Assembly: GCA_020696385.1 (NCBI GenBank)
Contig: JAEHCQ010000005.1
Span: 40,311-104,310, forward strand
Direction of reading: 5' to 3'
Length of the DNA: 64,000 nt
DNA from: Methanobacteriota archaeon
Lineage (GTDB): Archaea > Thermoplasmatota > Thermoplasmata > SG8-5 > JAGLSY01
The stretch's first letter is position 1; every line of letters starts with the position of its first letter. A program made the position numbers and the translations under genes. The notes beneath the pieces were generated by a model that searched no databases, was not told the origin of the DNA, and saw only the letters and a list, made by a program, of their open reading frames with translations. Positions 414 to 62,708 of the stretch are shown here, piece by piece.

Positions 414-423
414 AAAAGCCAAA

Positions 424-502
424 CAAATTAATTTTATACACTACCACCATCCCGTCCCATGAATGTAATTGACCTTGTAGCCGAGCTTGTTTCTATACCC
501 AG
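424..502 (+). repeat. Orphan copy of the M20 peptidase promoter and 5' end
   Basis: 456-502 is identical to 798-844 (47 bp). 424-443 matches 766-785 at 16/20 with the same 342-bp offset. Confidence 0.95.
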
Positions 503-513
503 AGCACACCCAC

Positions 514-727
514 TTTTTTCTTTTAAACCTCGCTGTGCTGGATCGGGCTCCTAAATCAAGCCCATTTCATGTGCTTGATAAAATAGATGCGTGGACTTTG
601 TCCACATCTAAAAAAGAAAAAAGACGGACAAATTAAATCAAGCCAGCTGACTTGATCAAAATAAATGCGTGGGTTCAGTAGGTGAAGTCGCATTTAAAAA
701 GAAAGTCGCCCGACCCTGCTCACTCGG
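514..727 (-). mobile_element. Putative non-autonomous structured mini-element: outer stem plus two internal double-hairpin modules
   Basis: Ends align with 59921-60008. Internal modules 552-620 and 634-704 match 18514-18593 on the opposite strand. Lies between the duplicated gene starts. Confidence 0.6.
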
Positions 728-800
728 TATTGATTGAACCGTAGATTAGTAAATGAGTAAATAAGCAAAATAATTCTATATCCTAGTGCTATTCAACCCC

Positions 801-1877
801 ATGAATGTAATTGACCTTGTAGCCGAGCTTGTTTCTATACCCAGTACACTTGGAAAGACCACGGATATCGAGAACTTCGTGGCTGGCCAGTTATCCGCAA
901 TTATCGATACAGAGTTCATCGAGGTCCCGGGCAAGGGCAGGTGCGTGCTTGCCCGTTCTATCGCGGATGATAAAAAGCCGACCATAATCTTCAATGGGCA
1001 TCTGGATACTGTCGAGGTGTGCAATGGGTGGACAAAGGATCCCTTCAAGCCAGTGATCGAAGGCGATAAGATGTTCGGCCTAGGAACCGCTGACATGAAA
1101 GGCGGAGTGGCAGTTGCCATGCTGGCATTTCAAGAAGCTGTAAGAAGAGGCATCAATGCGATATTTGTCGGGACCATTGATGAGGAAGGAGATTCGGCGG
1201 GTGGCTTTGCTATCAAGGATCTGGGACTAAAAGCAGATCTGTGCCTGATAACAGAACCCAGCAATGAGAAGATAATGCAGGGCTGTCGCGGCAGGTACGT
1301 GGTGGATGTGAACGTGAGCGGAAAGAGCGCTCACGGAGCTGTGCCCGAGAAAGGGGTCAATGCGATCACAGAGGCTGGCCGCCTGCTCTCCAGATTGGAT
1401 GAGTTACCCCTAATTCATCATGATGTTCTGGGAAAGGGTTCCGTATGCCCACTCAGCGTGGGTGGAGGAACCACCACATTATCGGTTCCGGAAGAATGCC
1501 GCATTGTCATCGACAGGCATGTTGTCCCAGGCGAGACAAAGGAAAGTGTGATGCAGGACATACGCAACCTGGCTGGGAAGATAGACAGCCAGGCGACATT
1601 CGATGTGGCACTGAACCAGGAAAGACCCACACCTTTCCTGGAGCCATATATCACGCAGGATGATGAATTGACGCGCCGATTCATCAGCACAGTCAAAGGC
1701 GATATCGCCTACGGGAAGTCAGTAGGCGATTACAATATATTTGCCACCATGTGCCCCACGATAGTCCATGGGCCAGTAGGGGAGAATTGGCATTCACCAG
1801 ATGAGTGGGTGTCTATTTCTTCAATAGAAAGATGTCTGGAGAACTACATGAGATTCCTTGATGCTTTCAAGGTCTAA
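801..1877 (+). CDS. M20/ArgE/DapE-family metallopeptidase or deacylase
   Basis: FNGHLDTV, GLGTADMKGG, DEEG, GKSAHG and ENWHSPDEWV motifs. Confidence 0.9.
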   Translation: MNVIDLVAELVSIPSTLGKTTDIENFVAGQLSAIIDTEFIEVPGKGRCVLARSIADDKKPTIIFNGHLDTVEVCNGWTKDPFKPVIEGDKMFGLGTADMKGGVAVAMLAFQEAVRRGINAIFVGTIDEEGDSAGGFAIKDLGLKADLCLITEPSNEKIMQGCRGRYVVDVNVSGKSAHGAVPEKGVNAITEAGRLLSRLDELPLIHHDVLGKGSVCPLSVGGGTTTLSVPEECRIVIDRHVVPGETKESVMQDIRNLAGKIDSQATFDVALNQERPTPFLEPYITQDDELTRRFISTVKGDIAYGKSVGDYNIFATMCPTIVHGPVGENWHSPDEWVSISSIERCLENYMRFLDAFKV

Positions 1878-3626: not shown

Positions 3627-6600
3627 TTAATTTTTAAATTTCTTAATGTTTATAAGATACATTTCCTCAGTCAAATTACCATCTTTGTAAGCCATCTCTA
3701 TTTTATCTATGATCTCTTGATTAGGATGAGGTGGCTCAGGCTCAATTGCCAGATCATCAGCACAGATCGGGCATTGTAGGCCTGGATCGATCAGGAAACC
3801 ACAAACTGGGCAGATATTTTCGACCTCAGTTGCTTGTTCTTCGTATAGATCATCTTCAGATGATACATCTTCATCAAATGAGGCGTCATCTTCGACAGGT
3901 CCATCATCTTTATTTTTACGAACAAATAGGAATGCCAGGAACAATAATATAATGAGCCAGATCAACATCCCGATGTATATCATCGGGTCTTGGTCCTTTG
4001 ACACATATTCCTCTACCCCATCTTCTGTTTCATCCAGGGGAGCAGGGTCAAATTCATCGAGTACTCCGTCATTGTCATCATCAGTGTCTTCATTGTTACC
4101 AATGCCATCCCCATCAGTATCTATTGATTCATCAGCATCAAATGGGAAAACATCATCAATATCTGGAACTCCATCATTGTCATCATCAGGGTCATCCACA
4201 TCAAGTATACCATCTCGATCATTATCTCCATGAACAACAATGATCTCAATTGTCGAGTTTATATTACCGGAATAATCTTCGACCGTGAAAGTGATACGAT
4301 AAGTTCCAGGGTCTTCAAAGATATATGATATATCATTTTGATAATTATCCAGATGACCTGGATAATCAATTGACCAATAACTATTTGCAATTCCAATATT
4401 GTCTGTTGAATTTGATCCCCAGAGATATGTTGTTTCTCCTTCGATCGTCTCTCTAGGAACATTAATGTCAATATTTGGCTTGGTTGTATCAACTACAAAA
4501 AATAGATCTGCATTCATCGGAGGGGATTCTTGATTGCCAGATATATCCTCTGCGATAGAATAGAATTGATACCAACCATCATTTGGTGCATTGGCCTCAA
4601 CATCATAATAATATGAAGGCGTATAGTTCCATTTTGCATATGTGAAATTATTATGCTCATATTTCCAGTCAGACCAGGTTATATTATCCGCACTGTACCT
4701 TGACCATAGGCTTATGCTCTCATAATAATAATGTACGGCATAAGAATAATTGATATTGACCATTGTGTTCTGCAAACCACTTGTTGAATCAGTAGCACTC
4801 CAAGAAAAATATAGATCCCCAAGATCATGCCAGAAATCTTCTTGAAAGGATAGCTTAGACACAGGATCTGAAGTATCAATACAAAGAGATATGGGTGGTT
4901 CAGAAGGGGATTCTTCATAATTCCCTACTACATCACGTGCTACAGAATATAATTGATAGAAGCCATCATTACTTGGCATTTTAAAAGACCAACTACCATT
5001 ATTTTCCTCCGCATACCTATGTGAAAAATAATCAGTCCATGTTAGATTGTCAGAGCTACGCCTATAATAAATATTAATTTGATCCAATCCAGTCAAATTA
5101 TCATGAGCATCGATTGATAGATTAAATGAACCATTGTTATGATAATATGGTACAGGAATTATCTCTGAGCTTGGATTCAGGGTATCACGAATAGTCTTTG
5201 TCTCTGAACTATTTTTACATATCTCAAAATTCCCATAATTGTCCTCAGATAAAGAATAGAACTCATAATATCCATCACCTTCAGGGAAGTCAAAAAGCCA
5301 ATTCCATTGTGAGATAGAATCCTCATTATATTGTTTCCAGGGAGTCCATGTAATATTAAATGAGCTATGGCGATACCATAATGTAACATTCTTAAGGCCA
5401 AATCCATCCAGATCCTCTGCGGTAGAATTTATAAGTTCAGACTGAGAGTTAATATATCTGGGAATCGATCGTAAAGATGATGTTGGTTTGATATGATCGT
5501 GAACTGGGTTCATCAGTGAATAATTATCACTACTAAATGCGGGATAAGAATCGATATCATATCCCGAATCACCGAATCCATCTGAACCGGATATATTCTG
5601 ACCCGGACCAGACATCAGATCTAAGCCATCATAGTCCGACCAGTAATTTCCCCCGATCGGGTATATGTTATTCCAATAATTTGTTGAATAATAATCATAG
5701 GCACCATAATTATTATCTAAAAATGAATTATGATAGACCATGTTCCAATCTGAATGAGAGAACATTAAGCCTCGAAAGTTATTCCATATTGTATTGTTGA
5801 TTATAAAATTATTAAAACAATCATATAAATATATCCCATAATATCCATAATTATATGGATACCCATTCCCATGTATCAAATTATTAGATATGGATGAATT
5901 TCTCGTACTTTCCATGCATATCCCATAATATTCATTTTCTATCGTATTGTTTTGTATTGTAATATTATTCGAATAACCAGCTAATATCCCACAGGATCCA
6001 TCCATTAATGTGAAGTTCTGAATGATCGAATCTGAACAATTCGCTAAAATGATCTGACCTGCATCAGATGGTATATTAACATCAGTTTGGTTTTTAAGAT
6101 AATATATTGGCAACCCATTGATAGTATTATTGATGAATGAATGAGTATTCCAATCCAATATAATATCATTATACCAGTATCTAATCATGATTCCAGTATT
6201 TATCAGAACATTGTCTTGGATCAGTATATATTTATTGCCGCGGATACCTATACCGACATCATAGTTATCTATTGAATTATTTATTATACTATTATTATTC
6301 CCCGGTTTCATAGTGATTCCAGTATCCCTTGTTCCAGAAAAGATATTGTTCTGTATTATGTTTCTATCACCCTGGCCTTCGATGGAGGTTTCCATAAAAA
6401 GGTTATTTTCAATTACATTATCATTACCAGTGAATGAGACACCTCGATAACTATTATGAGCGATCTGGTTATTTACCACAGTATTATTATTCCCAGTAAT
6501 AATCACTGCGTCCTCTTGATCATAGAGCTTATTATCAAATATCATAAAATTATCTGAGTTGAAAAGTTGAATTCCATTGGAACAATTCTCAATTACAATA

Positions 6601-7484
6601 TCATTGATCTGACCATTTGTACAGAATCCTAGAATGATGCTGCCGTATGTCTCTGTAAAAGTATAATTGGAGAGCACGACATTCTTGCAATCTGCATATA
6701 TTATCTGGCCTGGACCAGTTACATAAGGAGGGGTGTTAGTGTTCTTGAAATAATATATCGGCAACCCTTGAACTAAATTTGTGGTGTAAATATAATGAGT
6801 ATCCCATTCTTCGACTAAGGTTCCATAGATATGAATTCCATTGCTAAGGATATTACCTGAAAATGTATTGTGTTGGGATCGCAACATACGGATATCATCC
6901 CAATTGTTGATACTCCACCAATAGGGAGAAATATGAGTCTCAATCTGATTATTGATGATCAAATTGTAATTGCTTCCATCTAGGAACAATCCATAATATA
7001 CCGAACTAATTTGATTGTTTTCAATAAGGTTATGATCTGAATGAACAGATAGATATATCCCTCTGCTGCAATTATGGATAATATTATTGATAATATCACC
7101 ATAATCAGTATTCCATAGTTGAATCCCAGCAGCTTCCCAATATAATCCACTCCAATTAGAATAAGGAAACATCAATGTACAATTTCGGATAATGAAGTTA
7201 TCTGTCACGTTCCCCAAGTAAATGCAGGGTCCAAAAATGGTTCCATTGATCTCCCAGTTCTCGATCACCCAGGGATTGCCAGCACTCCCATTCCCACTAG
7301 ATACTCCATTAGCAAGGGTAAAATCAGCATTTGAATTTATTCGGATCTCACCGCGAGGTGTAGTTGTAATCACATATGTAGACACATCCTTGGCTTCCGT
7401 ATTATTAGCATTTGGTTCGGTAAATAATATGATGGAACTAAATATCAATAGTACCGATAGCCAAACAGTAAATGCCTTTCTCAT
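3627..7484 (-). CDS. Large membrane-anchored surface protein: NosD/CASH beta-helix repeats, Ig/PKD-like domains, TSP3-like Ca-binding repeats, TM helix, cytoplasmic zinc ribbon
   Basis: Signal peptide, NNxI repeats, GGNYWSDY, DxDxDG repeats, TM, CPVCG..CPIC; visibly AT-rich. Confidence 0.8.
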   Translation of the reverse strand: MRKAFTVWLSVLLIFSSIILFTEPNANNTEAKDVSTYVITTTPRGEIRINSNADFTLANGVSSGNGSAGNPWVIENWEINGTIFGPCIYLGNVTDNFIIRNCTLMFPYSNWSGLYWEAAGIQLWNTDYGDIINNIIHNCSRGIYLSVHSDHNLIENNQISSVYYGLFLDGSNYNLIINNQIETHISPYWWSINNWDDIRMLRSQHNTFSGNILSNGIHIYGTLVEEWDTHYIYTTNLVQGLPIYYFKNTNTPPYVTGPGQIIYADCKNVVLSNYTFTETYGSIILGFCTNGQINDIVIENCSNGIQLFNSDNFMIFDNKLYDQEDAVIITGNNNTVVNNQIAHNSYRGVSFTGNDNVIENNLFMETSIEGQGDRNIIQNNIFSGTRDTGITMKPGNNNSIINNSIDNYDVGIGIRGNKYILIQDNVLINTGIMIRYWYNDIILDWNTHSFINNTINGLPIYYLKNQTDVNIPSDAGQIILANCSDSIIQNFTLMDGSCGILAGYSNNITIQNNTIENEYYGICMESTRNSSISNNLIHGNGYPYNYGYYGIYLYDCFNNFIINNTIWNNFRGLMFSHSDWNMVYHNSFLDNNYGAYDYYSTNYWNNIYPIGGNYWSDYDGLDLMSGPGQNISGSDGFGDSGYDIDSYPAFSSDNYSLMNPVHDHIKPTSSLRSIPRYINSQSELINSTAEDLDGFGLKNVTLWYRHSSFNITWTPWKQYNEDSISQWNWLFDFPEGDGYYEFYSLSEDNYGNFEICKNSSETKTIRDTLNPSSEIIPVPYYHNNGSFNLSIDAHDNLTGLDQINIYYRRSSDNLTWTDYFSHRYAEENNGSWSFKMPSNDGFYQLYSVARDVVGNYEESPSEPPISLCIDTSDPVSKLSFQEDFWHDLGDLYFSWSATDSTSGLQNTMVNINYSYAVHYYYESISLWSRYSADNITWSDWKYEHNNFTYAKWNYTPSYYYDVEANAPNDGWYQFYSIAEDISGNQESPPMNADLFFVVDTTKPNIDINVPRETIEGETTYLWGSNSTDNIGIANSYWSIDYPGHLDNYQNDISYIFEDPGTYRITFTVEDYSGNINSTIEIIVVHGDNDRDGILDVDDPDDDNDGVPDIDDVFPFDADESIDTDGDGIGNNEDTDDDNDGVLDEFDPAPLDETEDGVEEYVSKDQDPMIYIGMLIWLIILLFLAFLFVRKNKDDGPVEDDASFDEDVSSEDDLYEEQATEVENICPVCGFLIDPGLQCPICADDLAIEPEPPHPNQEIIDKIEMAYKDGNLTEEMYLINIKKFKN

Positions 7485-7555: not shown

Positions 7556-7829
7556 ATGCGGGGAACCGTGTGAACGATATGCCCTTGGCATGATGTTCAC
7601 ATCGTAGGCCATAAACCCAATTCTCGAAGCTTACGTCTTGCTTCGAGTCCAGATGAAACATAATGGTGGGTTTACGGCAACCGTTTACTACTTTCGAATC
7701 CTATAATGAAAAATGCGGGGAACCGGATTTCGCACCTACACTTCATTGCGGTGCTCTCTCGAATTTACAAGTAAATTCTCGATCGAACTTCGTTCGAATC
7801 CTATAATGAAAAATGCGGGGAACCGGATT
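7556..7829 (-). repeat. Two extra copies of the tRNA-Leu 3' end separated by hairpin-rich inserts
   Basis: 37-bp repeat 7693-7729 = 7793-7829; 13-bp copy at 7556-7568; several inverted repeats between them. Confidence 0.9.
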
Positions 7830-7897
7830 CGAACCGGCGAATCACTAAGAACTAGACCCTGAATCTAGCGCCGTTGACCAGGCTTGGCTATCCCCGC
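7814..7897 (-). tRNA. tRNA-Leu(CAG)
   Basis: GCGGGGA/TCCCCGC acceptor stem, CTAGA-TTCAGGG-TCTAG anticodon arm, long variable arm, GGTTCGAATCC T-arm; CCA not encoded. Confidence 0.95.
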
Positions 7898-8007
7898 ATG
7901 GTGTTATGGATAAGCCCTGTAAATTCAAGAGGTTTATAAAATCTTTGATTGGATTGTATAATTTTCCGCCGATATCCTTATATCATGAAATTATCATGCC
8001 GAATACA

Positions 8008-18423: not shown

Positions 18424-18498
18424 GGGCGCGTAGCCTAGCCAGGATATGGCGCTAGCCTTCTAAGCTAGAAGCCAGGGGTTCGAATCCCCTCGCGTCCG
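18424..18498 (+). tRNA. tRNA-Arg(TCT)
   Basis: GGGCGCG/CGCGTCC acceptor stem, CTAGC-CTTCTAA-GCTAG anticodon arm, GGTTCGAATCC T-arm. Confidence 0.95.
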
Positions 18499-18503
18499 CT
18501 CTT

Positions 18504-18725
18504 TTATTTTTTTAAGATGCGACTTTATCATTTGATCCCACGCATCTTTTTTATCAAACAAATTTGTAAAAGATTCAGGTAATGAGTTTGATTCGATATG
18601 TTTAGAGGACGCGAGGTGGATGAGAACGGAGTTCGACGAGATTTTTCTGAATATAATGAAGAAAAAGCGAGCAAGACCTGGATGCTGAAAGCAGACAGGT
18701 TGCTGATCCCCTCGCGTCCGCTCTT
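18504..18725 (+). mobile_element. Structured insert downstream of tRNA-Arg, ending in a copy of the tRNA 3' end
   Basis: 18706-18725 = 18484-18503; inverted copy at 18607-18621; modules shared with 634-704 and 7725-7801. Confidence 0.6.
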
Positions 18726-18821
18726 ATTTTATTATCTTAATAAATGCGAAGTGTTGTAAACAAAACACTTATCTATTCTCTTTTGATTACTATACTATAG
18801 TTAATCCAGGGATGGACCTTA

Positions 18822-24341: not shown

Positions 24342-24452
24342 TCAGTAACGAGCCAGCGCCCTGGATCCACATTCGGGACATTTGCCCATGCCACTGATGT
24401 ATTCCTTCCAATTATTGCGCATCCATGTATGTTTACATTTTAGACATTTCAT
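24342..24452 (-). CDS. 36-aa zinc-ribbon microprotein (below the ORF-track cutoff)
   Basis: MKCLKCKHTWMRNNWKEYISGMGKCPECGSRALARY*; TATA-like TTATATA upstream. Confidence 0.7.
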   Translation of the reverse strand: MKCLKCKHTWMRNNWKEYISGMGKCPECGSRALARY

Positions 24453-24517
24453 AGTATCATATTCAAAGTTATGTATATTCTTATATATAAGGATGGCTTG
24501 GGAATTCCCAGATGTAC

Positions 24518-24596
24518 CCACTGATGTATTCCTTCCAATTATTGCGCATCCATGTGTGTTTACATTTTAGACATTTCATAGTATCATATTCAAAGT
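24518..24596 (-). repeat. Orphan 5'-end copy of the zinc-ribbon microprotein gene
   Basis: 79 bp matching 24391-24469 with one synonymous mismatch (CAC/CAT). Confidence 0.95.
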
Positions 24597-24605
24597 AAAA
24601 TTTAT

Positions 24606-40247: not shown

Positions 40248-40384
40248 ACTCCGAGCACCAGGATATACTATACAGAATGGAGATCATGCTTCGATCCGAT
40301 AGCCAATTAGAATAGATATCAATAAAGGGATTTAGGGCATAATGTTAATAATGTACCTGTCAATGGACACAAGGAGGAATGTGG

Positions 40385-55595: not shown

Positions 55596-56861
55596 ATGGC
55601 AGAGGCGAAATCCGGCATCACCGACCTCATCAGGCAGGTGGCCGCGGACGAGAAGATGGACCCAGAAAAATTGCGCAGGGCAGTAGCGGCTGGCTACGTT
55701 GTTATTCCCAATAACCCCATACACAACCCCATTCCAAAAGGTATCGGAGAAGGGTGCAGCATCAAGGTGAATGTGAACCTTGGCACATCCGAGGATTGTA
55801 TGGATGTGGAAGAGGAGCTGGAGAAAGCTCGAGTCGCAATGAAATTCGGAGCAGATGCCATCATGGATCTGAGCACCGGAGGAGATGTGGATGCGATCCG
55901 CGCCCGCATCATGAAAGAAGTTAATATTCCGATCGGAACGGTTCCGATTTACCAGGCGGGATTGGAGATGGCCAGGAAATGCTCTGTCGTGGATATGACA
56001 GAGGATATGATCTTCAATGGCATCGAGAAGCATGCGAAGGACGGCGTGGACTTCATGACGGTTCACACGGGCATAACCAAGGAAAGCATAGGCCGATTGA
56101 AGAAATGCGGCCGACTTACAGACATAGTCAGCCGTGGCGGCTCCTTCCTGACAGCGTGGATACTTGCCAATGACATGGAGAACCCCCTTTACGAGAATTT
56201 CGATTATCTACTGGAACTGGCTCAGAAATACGAGTTCACCCTCAGCCTGGGAGATGGGCTGAGGCCAGGCAGTATTGCTGATGCGACCGATGGTCCTCAG
56301 CTCCAAGAGCTCATCATCCTGGGCGAGTGCGTCCAGAGAGCCCGCGAGGCAAATGTACAGACAATGGTTGAAGGCCCTGGTCATGTCCCGCTCAATCAAA
56401 TAGAGGCAAATATGATCATCGAGAAGACCATATGCAAGAACGCACCCTTCTATGTTCTGGGCCCGTTGGTAACAGATATCGCACCCGGATACGACCACAT
56501 CGTGGGAGCGATCGGGGGCGCACTGGCTGCCTACCATGGCGCGGATTTCCTGTGCTATGTGACTCCTGCTGAACATCTATGTCTTCCAAATGTTGAGGAT
56601 GTCAAGATCGGAACTATCACCAGTAAGATAGCGGCTCACGCGGCCGATGTCGCGAAAGGTCGCGGTATGGAGCGCGATAATGCAATATCTCAGGGCAGGA
56701 AGGATCTTGATTGGGAAGCGATCTACAAGAATTCCATCGATCCAGAGCATGCTCGCAAGAGGCGCGGAGACAGAGAGCCAGGAGAAGAGGATGTCTGCTC
56801 GATGTGTGGGGAATATTGTGCGATTAAATTGATCAAAGAACATATGGATGATGAAATTTAA
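55596..56861 (+). CDS. thiC: Phosphomethylpyrimidine synthase (ThiC family)
   Basis: MDLSTGG, GTVPIYQ, SRGGS, EGPGHVP, PGYDH, CSMCGEYC motifs; a Bza-type paralog is not excluded. Confidence 0.88.
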   Translation: MAEAKSGITDLIRQVAADEKMDPEKLRRAVAAGYVVIPNNPIHNPIPKGIGEGCSIKVNVNLGTSEDCMDVEEELEKARVAMKFGADAIMDLSTGGDVDAIRARIMKEVNIPIGTVPIYQAGLEMARKCSVVDMTEDMIFNGIEKHAKDGVDFMTVHTGITKESIGRLKKCGRLTDIVSRGGSFLTAWILANDMENPLYENFDYLLELAQKYEFTLSLGDGLRPGSIADATDGPQLQELIILGECVQRAREANVQTMVEGPGHVPLNQIEANMIIEKTICKNAPFYVLGPLVTDIAPGYDHIVGAIGGALAAYHGADFLCYVTPAEHLCLPNVEDVKIGTITSKIAAHAADVAKGRGMERDNAISQGRKDLDWEAIYKNSIDPEHARKRRGDREPGEEDVCSMCGEYCAIKLIKEHMDDEI

Positions 56862-56900: not shown

Positions 56901-56948
56901 TATTGTGCAATTAAGCTGATAAAGGAACATATGGATGAAGATAAATAG
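56901..56948 (+). repeat. Orphan alternative 3' tail of thiC after a hairpin
   Basis: YCAIKLIKEHMDEDK* versus YCAIKLIKEHMDDEI* (56814-56861); hairpin at 56874-56898. Confidence 0.92.
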
Positions 56949-59557: not shown

Positions 59558-59691
59558 GAAGGAATATCACATAATAGAGATATAAGCCTTTGGAATAAAT
59601 GGGAATAACCTGAATATAGGCAAATGATGGATCTGAAAACTCAGCTCGGTTAAACCATCGGCCAGCTCCATGAAATTATGTTCGGGATTGC

Positions 59692-59915
59692 TTAGAATTT
59701 CTTAGATATCTCGTCCAGCACACTCTCGAATATAGCCATTCCATCCCCGAGTCCAGTTGGGAATGCTCTTGTCCAGTCCGGGTGCATTTCCCTGTCCATA
59801 ACTCTCTCCGGGTGCGGCATCATTCCAAACACATTACCCTGCGGATTACAGATACCAGCCACATTCTTTTCGGAGCCATTTGGATTCCAGAGATACCCGG
59901 CATAACTTCCATCGG
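59692..59915 (-). pseudogene. Orphan allelic copy of the purQ 3' end (224 bp)
   Basis: Colinear with 60017-60240; mostly synonymous differences; YPWN changed to YLWN. Confidence 0.92.
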
Positions 59916-59920
59916 AAGCC

Positions 59921-60008
59921 TTTTCTTTTATCCTCGCTGTGCTGGCCGGGCTCCAAAAGAACAAGTATTCCATTGCAAAAGAAAACTCGCCCGGCGCTGC
60001 TCGCTCGG
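59921..60008 (-). mobile_element. Minimal version of the structured mini-element
   Basis: TTTTCTTTTA-CCTCGCTGTGCTGG..CGGGCTCC ... AAAAGAAA..TCGCCCG..CTGCTC.CTCGG shared with 514-727. Confidence 0.6.
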
Positions 60009-60016
60009 AGATCTAC

Positions 60017-60850
60017 TCAGAATCTTTTCGATATCTCGTCCAGCACACTCTCGAATATAGCCATTCCATCCCCGAGTCCAGTTGGGAATGCTCTTGTCCA
60101 ATCTGGATGCATTTCACGATCCATAACTCTCTCAGGGTGCGGCATCATACCAAACACATTACCCCGTGGATTACAGATGCCAGCCACATTCTTTTCTGAG
60201 CCATTTGGATTCCAGGGATACCCGGCATAACTGCCATCGGGATCGACATATGAGAATACAAGCATGTCTTTCTCAGCCAGCTTTTTGTAAGCGATATCAA
60301 CTTCCGCTGAAGGGAAGATAAGCTTCCCTTCAGCGTGAGCAGATGGACACATCAGAACATCGCCCTCTGGTATCTTGGAAGTGAACATGCAATTACCCTT
60401 GTTCTCATGCTTCAGAAGTGTTGGTCGGCATTCGAATCTGGAAGAATCATTGGTAGTCAAAACTGCCTGAGGAACATCGGCCATTATCTCATCGAAGCCA
60501 GGTAGCAGACCCAGTTCGACCAATACCTGGAAGCCATTGCAGATCCCAAGGACAGCCTTTCCTTCATTCACAAAGGCTTTCAGATCATCCTTCAATCCAG
60601 CCTTCATACGAGCTGCCCATATAGCACCAGCACGAACATAATCACCGGATGAAAAGCCACCAGGGATCATCAGAATATGATAATCAGCCAAGCTTCTCTT
60701 CTCATCATCAGTGACATCCTGGCCGAGAAACTGTTTAAGGTGCACGATCTCTGGTTGTGCGCCCAGTCTCTTGAATGCCTGGAATGACTCCTGCTCGCAA
60801 TTGGTTCCCTCTATCCTCAGAACGCAGACTTTGATATCCTCGATGTTCAT
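60017..60850 (-). CDS. purQ: Phosphoribosylformylglycinamidine synthase subunit PurQ
   Basis: GTNC, PGGFS.GD, GICNGFQ, AHAEG, NPNGS, MMPHPER motifs. Confidence 0.96.
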   Translation of the reverse strand: MNIEDIKVCVLRIEGTNCEQESFQAFKRLGAQPEIVHLKQFLGQDVTDDEKRSLADYHILMIPGGFSSGDYVRAGAIWAARMKAGLKDDLKAFVNEGKAVLGICNGFQVLVELGLLPGFDEIMADVPQAVLTTNDSSRFECRPTLLKHENKGNCMFTSKIPEGDVLMCPSAHAEGKLIFPSAEVDIAYKKLAEKDMLVFSYVDPDGSYAGYPWNPNGSEKNVAGICNPRGNVFGMMPHPERVMDREMHPDWTRAFPTGLGDGMAIFESVLDEISKRF

Positions 60851-60937: not shown

Positions 60938-62587
60938 TTATACGATCTTCTGCTTTTTTAATACAAGTATTAAGACGACTATTGCAAGTATTATACAAAT
61001 AACAATTAGAGCAGTATTGCTGCCATTACTGCTAGCCGGAGCATTGTATGGATCGGGATCTTCAAAATCAAGTATTCCATCATTATCATCGTCTGTGTCT
61101 TTATTGTTGCCTATCCCATCCCCGTCTGAATCTGTATCTTCATCAGGATTAAGTGGTAAAGCATCTAAGGAATCTATAACACCATCATTGTCATCATCGG
61201 TGTCCATCCAGTCTTGAGAATTAATTTCATCTCCATCTGGTGTTCTATCGCCATCACTGTCACGTGGATGTCTATCTCCATCTCTTGGATCAGTTCCCAA
61301 ATATTCCTCCCAGATATCCTTGAAGCCATCATTATCATCGTCTGGATCAGATGTATCTCCAATACCATCCCCATCAAAATCATCATCTGTTGGTCCTTCC
61401 AAATTGCCAGAGAACACATTATTCATGGTATTGGTAGCATTGGAGAAACTTAATACCATTCCACACAGATTATCTGATATTACATTATTCATAATTGCAG
61501 CTCCATCTGATAATATTAATGAGATCCCATACCAGGTATTATTGGATATCTCATTATCGAGGATACTGCATCTATCTGAACTCTGTAATGATACCCCATA
61601 ATATCTGTTTGAATTAATTATGTTTCTCTCGATAATAGTCAGATCTGAGTTAGAAATGGAAAGCCCATTTCCAAAGTCATTATCCGATATGTCATTATTT
61701 TTAATTTCATTACTATTGGAATTTTTGATTGATATCTGTATGGGGGCTGGATGGCTTGAGACTATATTTGAATGAGAGGCTACTATATCTATGTGTTCAA
61801 CAGTATTACCTGCTATGAGGTTATCATCAGACCCCTCTAATTTGATGCCTTGGCTCCTATAGTCTGAAGCAATATTGTTTTTAATGGTATTGTTGTTTGC
61901 TGAAATTAAATAAATACTAAATTCATTGTTAACAAAAGTATTGTTTTCAATAATATTATCATAACCTATGACTTTAATACCATTCCCAGAGCTCTCTGCT
62001 ATATTATTTAGTTTTATTATATTATGATTTCCTTGAGCCATAATACCATGATCACCTCTTTCACCGTCATCAACTCCATTGGAAGAGATTGTATTTTGAA
62101 TGATCTGAATATAATTTGAATTAGTCATACTTATCCCGTCCTTATTATTAGATGTGATCGAATTGTTAGTAATAGTGATATTATTCGAAAAATAAACTTC
62201 AATGCCAGCTCCATTATAATTAGAAGAAATGTTATTATTTTCAATTACTCCATTTTCAGTATTATAAAGATATAATCCAACATTTCCATAATACAGGCTA
62301 TCAATCCCACTTGCCTGATGCAAATAACAATCTCGAATTATAAAATGATCTGTAGTATTACCAATAAAAATACAGTCCCCTTTGCTGATTCCATTGATAT
62401 CAAATCCTTCAATTATCCATGGATTCAGTTGGGTGCCATTTCCTGGAAAACCTTTAATAGAGAATTCATAATTATTTTTTATTCTGATCGGTACATGGTC
62501 AGTATATCCTTCAGTTGGTTGCGGGATTACAATAAATACTGTAAAACACATCATTAAAATTATCACTGTTGATATAATCCTTTTCAT
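60938..62587 (-). CDS. Membrane-anchored NosD/CASH beta-helix surface protein with TSP3-like repeats
   Basis: Signal peptide, NNxI repeats, DxDxDG repeats, C-terminal TM; AT-rich. Confidence 0.8.
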   Translation of the reverse strand: MKRIISTVIILMMCFTVFIVIPQPTEGYTDHVPIRIKNNYEFSIKGFPGNGTQLNPWIIEGFDINGISKGDCIFIGNTTDHFIIRDCYLHQASGIDSLYYGNVGLYLYNTENGVIENNNISSNYNGAGIEVYFSNNITITNNSITSNNKDGISMTNSNYIQIIQNTISSNGVDDGERGDHGIMAQGNHNIIKLNNIAESSGNGIKVIGYDNIIENNTFVNNEFSIYLISANNNTIKNNIASDYRSQGIKLEGSDDNLIAGNTVEHIDIVASHSNIVSSHPAPIQISIKNSNSNEIKNNDISDNDFGNGLSISNSDLTIIERNIINSNRYYGVSLQSSDRCSILDNEISNNTWYGISLILSDGAAIMNNVISDNLCGMVLSFSNATNTMNNVFSGNLEGPTDDDFDGDGIGDTSDPDDDNDGFKDIWEEYLGTDPRDGDRHPRDSDGDRTPDGDEINSQDWMDTDDDNDGVIDSLDALPLNPDEDTDSDGDGIGNNKDTDDDNDGILDFEDPDPYNAPASSNGSNTALIVICIILAIVVLILVLKKQKIV

Positions 62588-62708
62588 TTTTCCACCTCTC
62601 TTCCATGACGGCCATCCCTTAACTAGCTTATTAGTTGTGGGCATTCCTCCACTCGCATAAGTGAATCGAAAGTCTCACTTATATGACTTTCGTTGAGTGT
62701 ATTGGATT

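Follow-up and report, generated by a model that had tools for sequence, protein, structure and literature searches.

Insertion with long target duplication is reportedly a description that goes back to Nobusato in 2000. In the part of their paper drawn on here, Furuta, Abe and Kobayashi (2010, PMC2853133) describe it for restriction-modification genes in bacteria, with repeats of 46-423 bp and no mobility gene, and no archaeal case passed their screen. The mechanism given in that part of the paper, DNA cutting by the inserted restriction genes, is put forward as a hypothesis, as is a cycle of invasion, repeat use and release (PMC2853133). Here we describe a locus of comparable layout in an archaeon, at the 3′ end of purQ, where a short non-coding element stands between the intact gene and an orphan copy of its last codons. 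The locus lies in a 64-kb stretch (hereafter the window; positions 40,311 to 104,310 of contig JAEHCQ010000005.1, assembly GCA_020696385.1, Thermoplasmatota), which is part of a single 186,657-bp contig.

Two further lines of work bear on such a locus, each known to us from parts of the source. For orphaned 3′ regions in rhs and type VI secretion system (T6SS) loci, one-sided homologous recombination has been proposed (PMC5361080), and the archaeal integrase Int-pTN3 is described as recombining identical segments down to 104 bp without a fixed attachment (att) site (Cossu 2017, in review PMC8371274). Among open-access titles and abstract openings, our literature search turned up no account of such an element, in Thermoplasmata or elsewhere among archaea.

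The purQ 3′ end is present twice

The purQ open reading frame (ORF) gives a full-length match to the Pfam family GATase_5 (E 2.3e-68, residues 7-268), and the orphan matches profile positions 197-255 only. Together they form the one direct-repeat family at this locus, two copies of 225 nucleotides (nt) at 92% identity with a start-to-start distance of 325 and a spacer of 100 nt between them (Table 1). The preliminary description of the locus had proposed a 224-bp copy around an element of roughly 90 bp; the length of the copy held, and the size of the spacer did not.

The two copies align colinearly without gaps, as had been claimed, and match at 206 of 224 bases, which rules out a repeat due to chance. 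Across homologous codons 3-76, the 18 differences leave 13 sense codons changed silently, along with the stop codon (TAA in the orphan, TGA in the attached copy), and three residues changed (orphan/attached L/P within YPWN, Q/R and K/R), so that the peptides of the two ends agree at 70 of 73 residues. This codon table reproduces the earlier count of about 13 silent and three residue differences (R/K, R/Q, P/L), the MPHPER motif kept in the orphan and the change of YPWN to YLWN, and an identical block estimated before at roughly 70 bp measured 71 nt. For purQ itself the effect is small. The gene is intact, has two residues conservatively replaced and now ends in another stop codon, with a new T-rich tract behind it.

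Table 1. Positions in the window of the purQ locus, the two other element loci and the element copies
Feature	Positions	Strand	Basis
purQ, intact, 277 aa, glutamine amidotransferase subunit of phosphoribosylformylglycinamidine (FGAM) synthase	60017..60850	-	ORF and Pfam GATase_5
Repeat copy attached to purQ: last 74 codons, stop TGA and 1 further base	60016..60240	-	direct-repeat search
Orphan purQ 3′ end: YLWN for YPWN, stop TAA, joined to native downstream DNA	59691..59915	-	direct-repeat search
Spacer, a short element copy of 100-101 nt	59916..60015	-	profile search, alignment
93-aa ORF, starting in the element and running into the orphan; probably no gene	59692..59973	-	found on the window's own contig only (protein collection)
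71-nt identical tract, candidate crossover or gene-conversion tract	60030..60100 = 59705-59775	-	base comparison
Element copy at purQ: left module adjoining the purQ stop; right module with A-rich end adjoining the orphan	left ~59974-60010; right ~59914-59973	-	nhmmer, E 9e-9 (left), 1e-15 (right)
Long element copy, 255 nt, closing stem and four internal hairpins	508..762	-	alignment, fold
Third element copy, 194 nt, first hairpin pair in common with the 508-762 copy	18512..18705	+	alignment, nhmmer
M20 peptidase repeat copy, intact: promoter region and first 16 codons; adjoins element left end	763..849	+	repeat search
Orphan copy of M20 promoter and 5′ end; adjoins element right end	421..507	+	repeat search
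tRNA-Arg(TCT), intact; last 16 nt and 12 nt downstream (18484-18511) are repeat copy 1	18424..18499	+	ARAGORN/Rfam
Orphan copy of tRNA-Arg 3′ end	18706..18733	+	20 nt identical, 28 nt at 89%

Empty sites in close relatives

Two close relatives, L001 and L002, were compared with the window. Both are metagenome-assembled genomes returned by one PurQ scan of species-representative genomes, which also returned two distant relatives, and their PurQ proteins are 94% and 86% identical in amino acids to that of the window, respectively. Each has a single purQ end without the insert, with both the upstream and the downstream flank aligning. In both L001 (one 2915-nt match, 79%) and L002, the single purQ 3′ end and the sequence that follows it line up in order with the orphan and its own downstream sequence, so that the orphan occupies the ancestral position. 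Relative to both genomes the window carries 325 extra bp, namely a second purQ end and the spacer, and the insertion at the purQ 3′ end put forward earlier is borne out by an empty site in two relatives.

A second difference from L001 lies beside purQ. A gene for a NosD-like beta-helix surface protein of 568 residues (60938-62644) has no DNA similarity to the 524-residue ORF of L001 (4203-5984), with both flanks aligning, and so makes up a variable cassette next to the purQ insertion. It has acidic repeat DNA in common with the gene for a 1285-residue protein at 3627-7484.

An element family at three loci

By alignment and profile search, the purQ spacer is a short member of a multi-copy, non-coding, hairpin-rich element family. 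The copy at 508-762 was first found by a low-stringency search with the purQ spacer; the Smith-Waterman score of the pair is 51 (shuffle mean 15.4), and the local score of the 508-762 copy against the 18512-18705 spacer is 46 (shuffle mean 17.7), each reached by none of 500 shuffles. What had been called an element is a real repeated family with three copies in the window, and profile searches with nhmmer found no further copies there.

The purQ and 508-762 copies share a left module (about 35 nt) and a right module (about 50 nt) that ends in an A-rich run, and the 508-762 copy holds about 150 nt of extra interior. The latter folds with a z of -3.8 (1 of 200 shuffles folded as well), its left and right modules joined by a 9-bp closing stem. 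This stem is retained in the purQ copy with one compensated change (7-9 bp, GC-rich, short and subterminal), and a two-hairpin consensus built from four hairpin units at three loci has a compensated change in 2 of 14 pairs, which lends modest support. There is no gene in the 100 nt inserted at purQ. As for known RNAs, ARAGORN and Rfam at gathering score gave two tRNAs only in the window, and Rfam at E values up to 5 gave weak matches far under the cut-offs on both element regions. The 255-nt copy, searched in distant mode against collections of phages and of plasmids, gave no match, and no autonomous relative of the element was found in the window, at four loci or in the phage and plasmid collections.

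Two other origins of the spacer were tried and rejected. That it is the donor's own intergenic DNA from downstream of purQ was not established, as shuffles did as well in 12.8% of 1000 cases for the window's native intergenic DNA, in 2.7% for L001 (a 12-nt run) and in 85.6% for L002. That it is a scrambled copy of purQ from upstream of the repeat, as in a plain tandem duplication, was rejected because 69% of shuffles did equally well; the DNA that follows the orphan is also unlike the spacer.

All three element copies that nhmmer found in the window stand between direct repeats of a gene end, one end intact and the other a displaced orphan, and the polarity is constant in all three, with the left side towards the intact gene and the right side towards the orphan. 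The repeats measure 28 nt at tRNA-Arg, 87 nt at the M20 peptidase and 225 nt at purQ, with identical tracts inside them of 20, 47 and 71 nt, respectively. At the M20 locus (ORF 786..1877, with the ATG at 801 in our reading) the pair is 83% identical overall, made up of a 47-nt identical run followed by 22 matches in 35 positions. Repeats this long and this variable rule out a target-site duplication of the transposase type, in agreement with the preliminary description. No core is common to the purQ, M20 and tRNA-Arg repeats (no shared word above 8 nt), which suggests recognition through homology to each target and not through one att sequence.

Base-pairing between the element and its own repeat followed no general rule over the three loci. 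The longest complementarity is 8 nt at purQ (64 of 300 shuffles) and 10 nt at tRNA-Arg (4 of 300), and at M20 297 of 300 shuffles did as well. The 10 nt at tRNA-Arg lie within the element (18512-18705) and are the exact reverse complement of part of the tRNA-Arg 3′ core. A tandem array (196-413) immediately precedes the orphan M20 promoter copy and consists of alternating 31-nt hairpin-like units with a 62-nt period, the copies of which are 100% identical.

Other gene-end repeats were seen in the window. At tRNA-Leu(CAG) (7813-7898, minus strand) the last 17 nt and 26 nt downstream are repeated 100 nt further on (7687-7729 and 7787-7829; 95% identity, 37 nt identical) across a 57-nt spacer with an 8-bp hairpin, in a layout like that of the element loci. 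A small CxxC zinc-ribbon ORF on the minus strand has its upstream region and about its first 22 codons doubled (24391-24478 and 24518-24605, 94% identity), the orphan 5′ end lying upstream of the intact gene and the 39-nt spacer being unrelated, with a TATA-like run. Alignment of these two spacers with the element gave no similarity, and they were rejected as family members. A repeat pair at the thiC 3′ end (56814-56854 and 56901-56941) is kept in L002 (8559-8626 and 8663-8730), and its conservation there marks it as an old feature apart from the element, perhaps an internal repeat of a small ORF.

Divergence of the two purQ ends

The differences between the two purQ ends are unevenly placed. 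When 18 differences were placed at random 100,000 times, a run as long as the observed 71 nt arose in 1.2% of cases, and the figure fell to 0.8% with the differences confined to third codon positions. Proposed before as a check, the ratio of non-silent to silent substitution rates (dN/dS, Nei-Gojobori) between the copies came to 0.08, with mostly silent differences: 13 silent and 5 non-silent changes, a conservative count, since the boundary codon is part of it and one double change was split. Five or fewer non-silent changes among 18 would have a probability of 8.5e-4 under neutral drift of the orphan since the duplication. With a dN/dS this low and neutral drift in place this improbable, both ends look like alleles from different genomes, each having served for most of its evolution as the end of a functioning gene, and not like a copy that decayed in place.

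The copies were also compared with L001 on either side of the identical tract. Upstream of the tract the attached copy shares the L001 state at 9 sites and the orphan at 2; downstream, the attached copy does so at none and the orphan at 3 (Fisher p 0.027). In the 140 nt that precede the tract the window copies are 90% identical to each other, and the attached copy and the orphan are 88.6% and 83.6% identical to L001. A switch at the tract would be the expected trace of a reciprocal crossover there, a trace for which these counts are thin evidence. Differences between the attached copy and the orphan continue to the very border of the element (4 of the last 13 bases), which fits a tail that arrived together with the element.

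Traces in other genomes

In L002 the first 68 positions of a contig (1-68), at the contig end, match the tRNA-Arg element copy (nhmmer, E 5e-6). We take the gene downstream of this piece to be gcvH, no family search having been made on it. Repeated copies of the element in that genome, at which assemblies break, would lead one to expect a contig that ends inside it. The element also gives rise to orphan pieces of genes and tRNAs that mislead annotation, and at least one contig break in a metagenome assembly, that of L002, falls within it. In L001 two short pieces lie beside purQ, an 18-21-nt left-module match upstream on the other strand (5909-5929, E 0.015) and a 12-nt run like the left module downstream (6929-6940; 2.7% of shuffles equal), and each of these may be a remnant or a chance match.

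A second orphan purQ end was found by searching a protein collection with the 93-residue ORF. The search returned 13 short PurQ-like proteins, the window's own included, and besides the window's own only P0002 has an N-terminus that is not PurQ. P0002 is an orphan PurQ C-terminus of 103 residues from a metagenome, present on two contigs, the longest of 1982 bp. Its 20-residue N-terminus is identical at 9 of 16 residues to the translated element just upstream of the orphan, in a second frame (tblastn E 0.004, 701-nt target), and its first three residues equal those of the orphan-ORF frame. P0002 shares 64 of 73 residues with the window orphan and 67 of 73 with L002; being no closer to the window orphan than to L002, it suggests that the orphans are independent or are kept like the genes of their own genomes.

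A possible route of insertion

The reading that we tentatively favour, at close to an even chance but short of it, is an insertion with a long, allele-like target duplication, in which a foreign purQ end, with the element next to it, would have been brought in and joined to the chromosome by a crossover within the resident gene end. That crossover would have been reciprocal, and the incoming purQ 3′ end would have come from another lineage. The incoming DNA would most simply be a small circle or a tandem copy, set free at the donor locus when the repeats there recombined with each other. Had the crossover fallen in the 71-nt tract, the gene body would be followed by the donor tail and its stop, then by the element, the donor head, the resident tail and finally the native downstream DNA. 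The gene would stay whole while its last codons, stop and terminator were exchanged, the old end would be left as an orphan, and recombination between the repeats could take the insert out cleanly again. With no gene on the element, the reaction would fall to the host's homologous recombination or to a recombinase that depends on homology and is provided in trans. Such a crossover would account for the intact gene, the tract at the centre of the repeat, the diverged tail beside the element, the native orphan, the lack of a common core and, through clean loss, the empty sites.

Several observations weigh against this insertion by crossover. Neither a circle nor a donor was seen, a 325-bp circle would be very small, and neither a recombinase nor any integrase or transposase family was seen among the 57 ORFs of the window that were scanned. 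How the element would reach a new gene is left unexplained by the model. The purQ spacer by itself folds no better than shuffles (z -0.09 and +0.16). The mosaic test has 14 sites and one outgroup, L001; with L002 the same sites are uninformative (5 against 6 upstream, 2 against 1 downstream), and of the phylogenetic discordance anticipated in the preliminary description it is the weak switch relative to L001 that stands. An old orphan overwritten occasionally by the working alleles of element-free strains would give the same silent-biased differences. The dissimilar spacers at tRNA-Leu and the zinc-ribbon ORF suggest that such duplications can exist without a recognisable element copy. P0002 is known from its protein letters, and its junction of element and orphan is about 10 codons further upstream than that of the window; had one unit travelled to both places, 30 nt would have to have been lost afterwards, and otherwise the two would be independent events, which fits a duplication made at each insertion. 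Of the earlier proposal that the mobile unit is the element plus captured flank, the repeated element and the allele-like copies stand; such a unit in movement, with a donor and a recombinase, was not seen.

A wider claim is possible though doubtful: that the family represents gene-less, structured selfish DNA of archaea, 100-250 nt long, which travels with a copied host gene end, loops out via the repeats and re-enters the homologous gene of another genome. If this is true, it swaps termini, stops, terminators or promoters between lineages, leaving orphan ends behind, and insertion with long target duplication requires no nuclease encoded by the cargo. An element that truly carries gene ends across lineages would be a means of exchanging small stretches of allele at termini, promoters and terminators. 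Finding the same architecture with a tiny non-coding insert three times in 64 kb of an archaeon suggests that host recombination or a factor in trans is enough.

Alternative explanations

The main rival to insertion by crossover is a duplication made afresh at each insertion, through staggered breaks 28-225 nt apart or through break repair that copies the target twice. The repeats would have started out identical and diverged later, through homologous exchange of either copy with alleles of other strains and through gene conversion between the copies. We consider it unlikely. It predicts a repeat length that varies by locus and, by about 10 codons, between the two purQ cases, insertions with 46-423 bp repeats and no mobility gene are documented in bacteria in the part of the survey drawn on here (PMC2853133), and the 71-nt tract could be a conversion tract. 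Allele exchange, however, would have to reach the element, as the attached copy is diverged through those last 13 bases, and an element-free donor has no homology past the stop with which to complete the exchange. The M20 promoter part, with its 22 of 35 matches beside the 47-nt identical run, speaks against it too, and the weak L001 switch at the tract is not predicted.

Homology-facilitated illegitimate recombination is improbable. Here linear foreign DNA ending in the element behind a donor purQ would have paired with the resident purQ, and its free end would have been joined without homology 224 nt upstream of the resident stop. The same rare outcome, a duplication and not a deletion, would be needed at three loci in one polarity, neither the long identical tracts in the repeats nor a switch at the tract is predicted, and by eye the junctions have no clear microhomology (at most a few shared bases). 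With that said, such an event yields the observed order, in which a donor-type attached end and the element are followed by an orphan that is resident throughout and still stands at its original site. Breakage is plausible in hairpin-rich DNA, and the same model has been proposed, in the part of the source used here, for orphaned 3′ regions in rhs and T6SS loci (PMC5361080).

It is also possible, though quite improbable, that the three loci are scars of larger integrase-borne plasmids or viruses, integrated at att sites in gene ends and since stripped of nearly all of their DNA in the manner of cis-mobilizable elements. Integrative elements that restore the end of their target gene are well known, and the tRNA-Arg locus is of classic form, with an intact tRNA, an insert, an orphan 3′ end and a 20-nt identical core. 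The termini kept between the purQ and M20 copies, with an interior that differs in length, are what internal deletions would leave. Set against this are three targets without a common core for inserts of one family, the lack of an integrase in 64 kb and of similar DNA in the phage and plasmid collections, and the 140 nt of diverged homology upstream of the tract in the purQ repeat, for which an att arm has no need.

A retroposon similar to a short interspersed element (SINE), with an RNA that ends in an A-rich tail reverse-transcribed at a staggered nick to give a variable target duplication, is very improbable. The A-rich right end does adjoin the downstream repeat, duplication lengths vary and one copy follows a tRNA gene; the scanned ORFs, however, include no reverse transcriptase, the repeats differ as alleles do, and to our knowledge there are no SINE-like elements in archaea. 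An assembly artefact, in which purQ alleles of two strains were stitched in tandem, is hardly credible: everything lies on one contig, the relatives are metagenome-assembled genomes and the copies differ like strain alleles, but the spacer family stands at two more loci with the same architecture and occurs in other assemblies (L002, and P0002 on its two contigs), and a graph assembler would presumably need both junctions in reads, so that a chimera is unlikely, as is a simple duplication in place.

Comparison with known systems

A diversity-generating retroelement, with the two ends as template and variable repeat, was considered and excluded because the window has no reverse transcriptase (57 ORFs) and the differences are not adenine-specific, A standing at 6 of the 18 differing bases in the orphan and at 4 of 18 in the attached copy. 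In miniature inverted-repeat transposable elements (MITEs) the termini are inverted repeats, and the target duplications are short and of one fixed length. The element resembles them in being short, non-coding, multi-copy, hairpin-forming and intergenic, with size variants through internal deletion; unlike them it has duplications of 28-225 nt that are not fixed in length, and its stem of 7-9 bp is subterminal and short.

Integrative elements and att remnants, such as the cis-mobilizable elements of streptococcal integrative and conjugative elements, share with these loci the intact gene, insert and orphan end, the gene restored by the incoming copy, the tRNA 3′ end among the targets and, in the case of remnants, the absence of a recombinase gene. 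They differ in that one family here occupies three unrelated targets without a common core, with inserts 10-100 times smaller and no integrase seen in the window. Of the marks of a site-specific integrative element, an identical core inside the repeats is present, and a recombinase gene (in the window) and a common att core are absent.

The following comparisons draw on parts of the respective sources. Int-pTN3 is alike in being an archaeal enzyme able to join any two identical segments, whereas its setting is Thermococcales plasmids, at least 104 bp of identity and inversions, and here no such gene lies in the window and the identical tracts are of 20-71 nt. In the C-terminal displacement of rhs, contact-dependent inhibition (CDI) and T6SS loci, a newly acquired 3′ end likewise captures the gene, while the former one is displaced downstream and left orphaned. 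Those systems exchange toxin domains and immunity genes, whereas here the peptides are near-equal (70/73) and a small element is the sole cargo.

Insertion with long target duplication shares most with this locus: an insert absent in a relative, long and variable direct repeats that each align with a single target, no transposase or integrase, and repeats that often overlap a gene 3′ end. The known inserts are kilobase-sized restriction-modification genes in bacteria, and here the insert is a 100-255-nt non-coding family in an archaeon with allele-like repeats. Although its cargo is not a restriction-modification system, the locus has an empty site, repeats above 30 bp and no mobility gene, and insertion with long target duplication is the closest described class.

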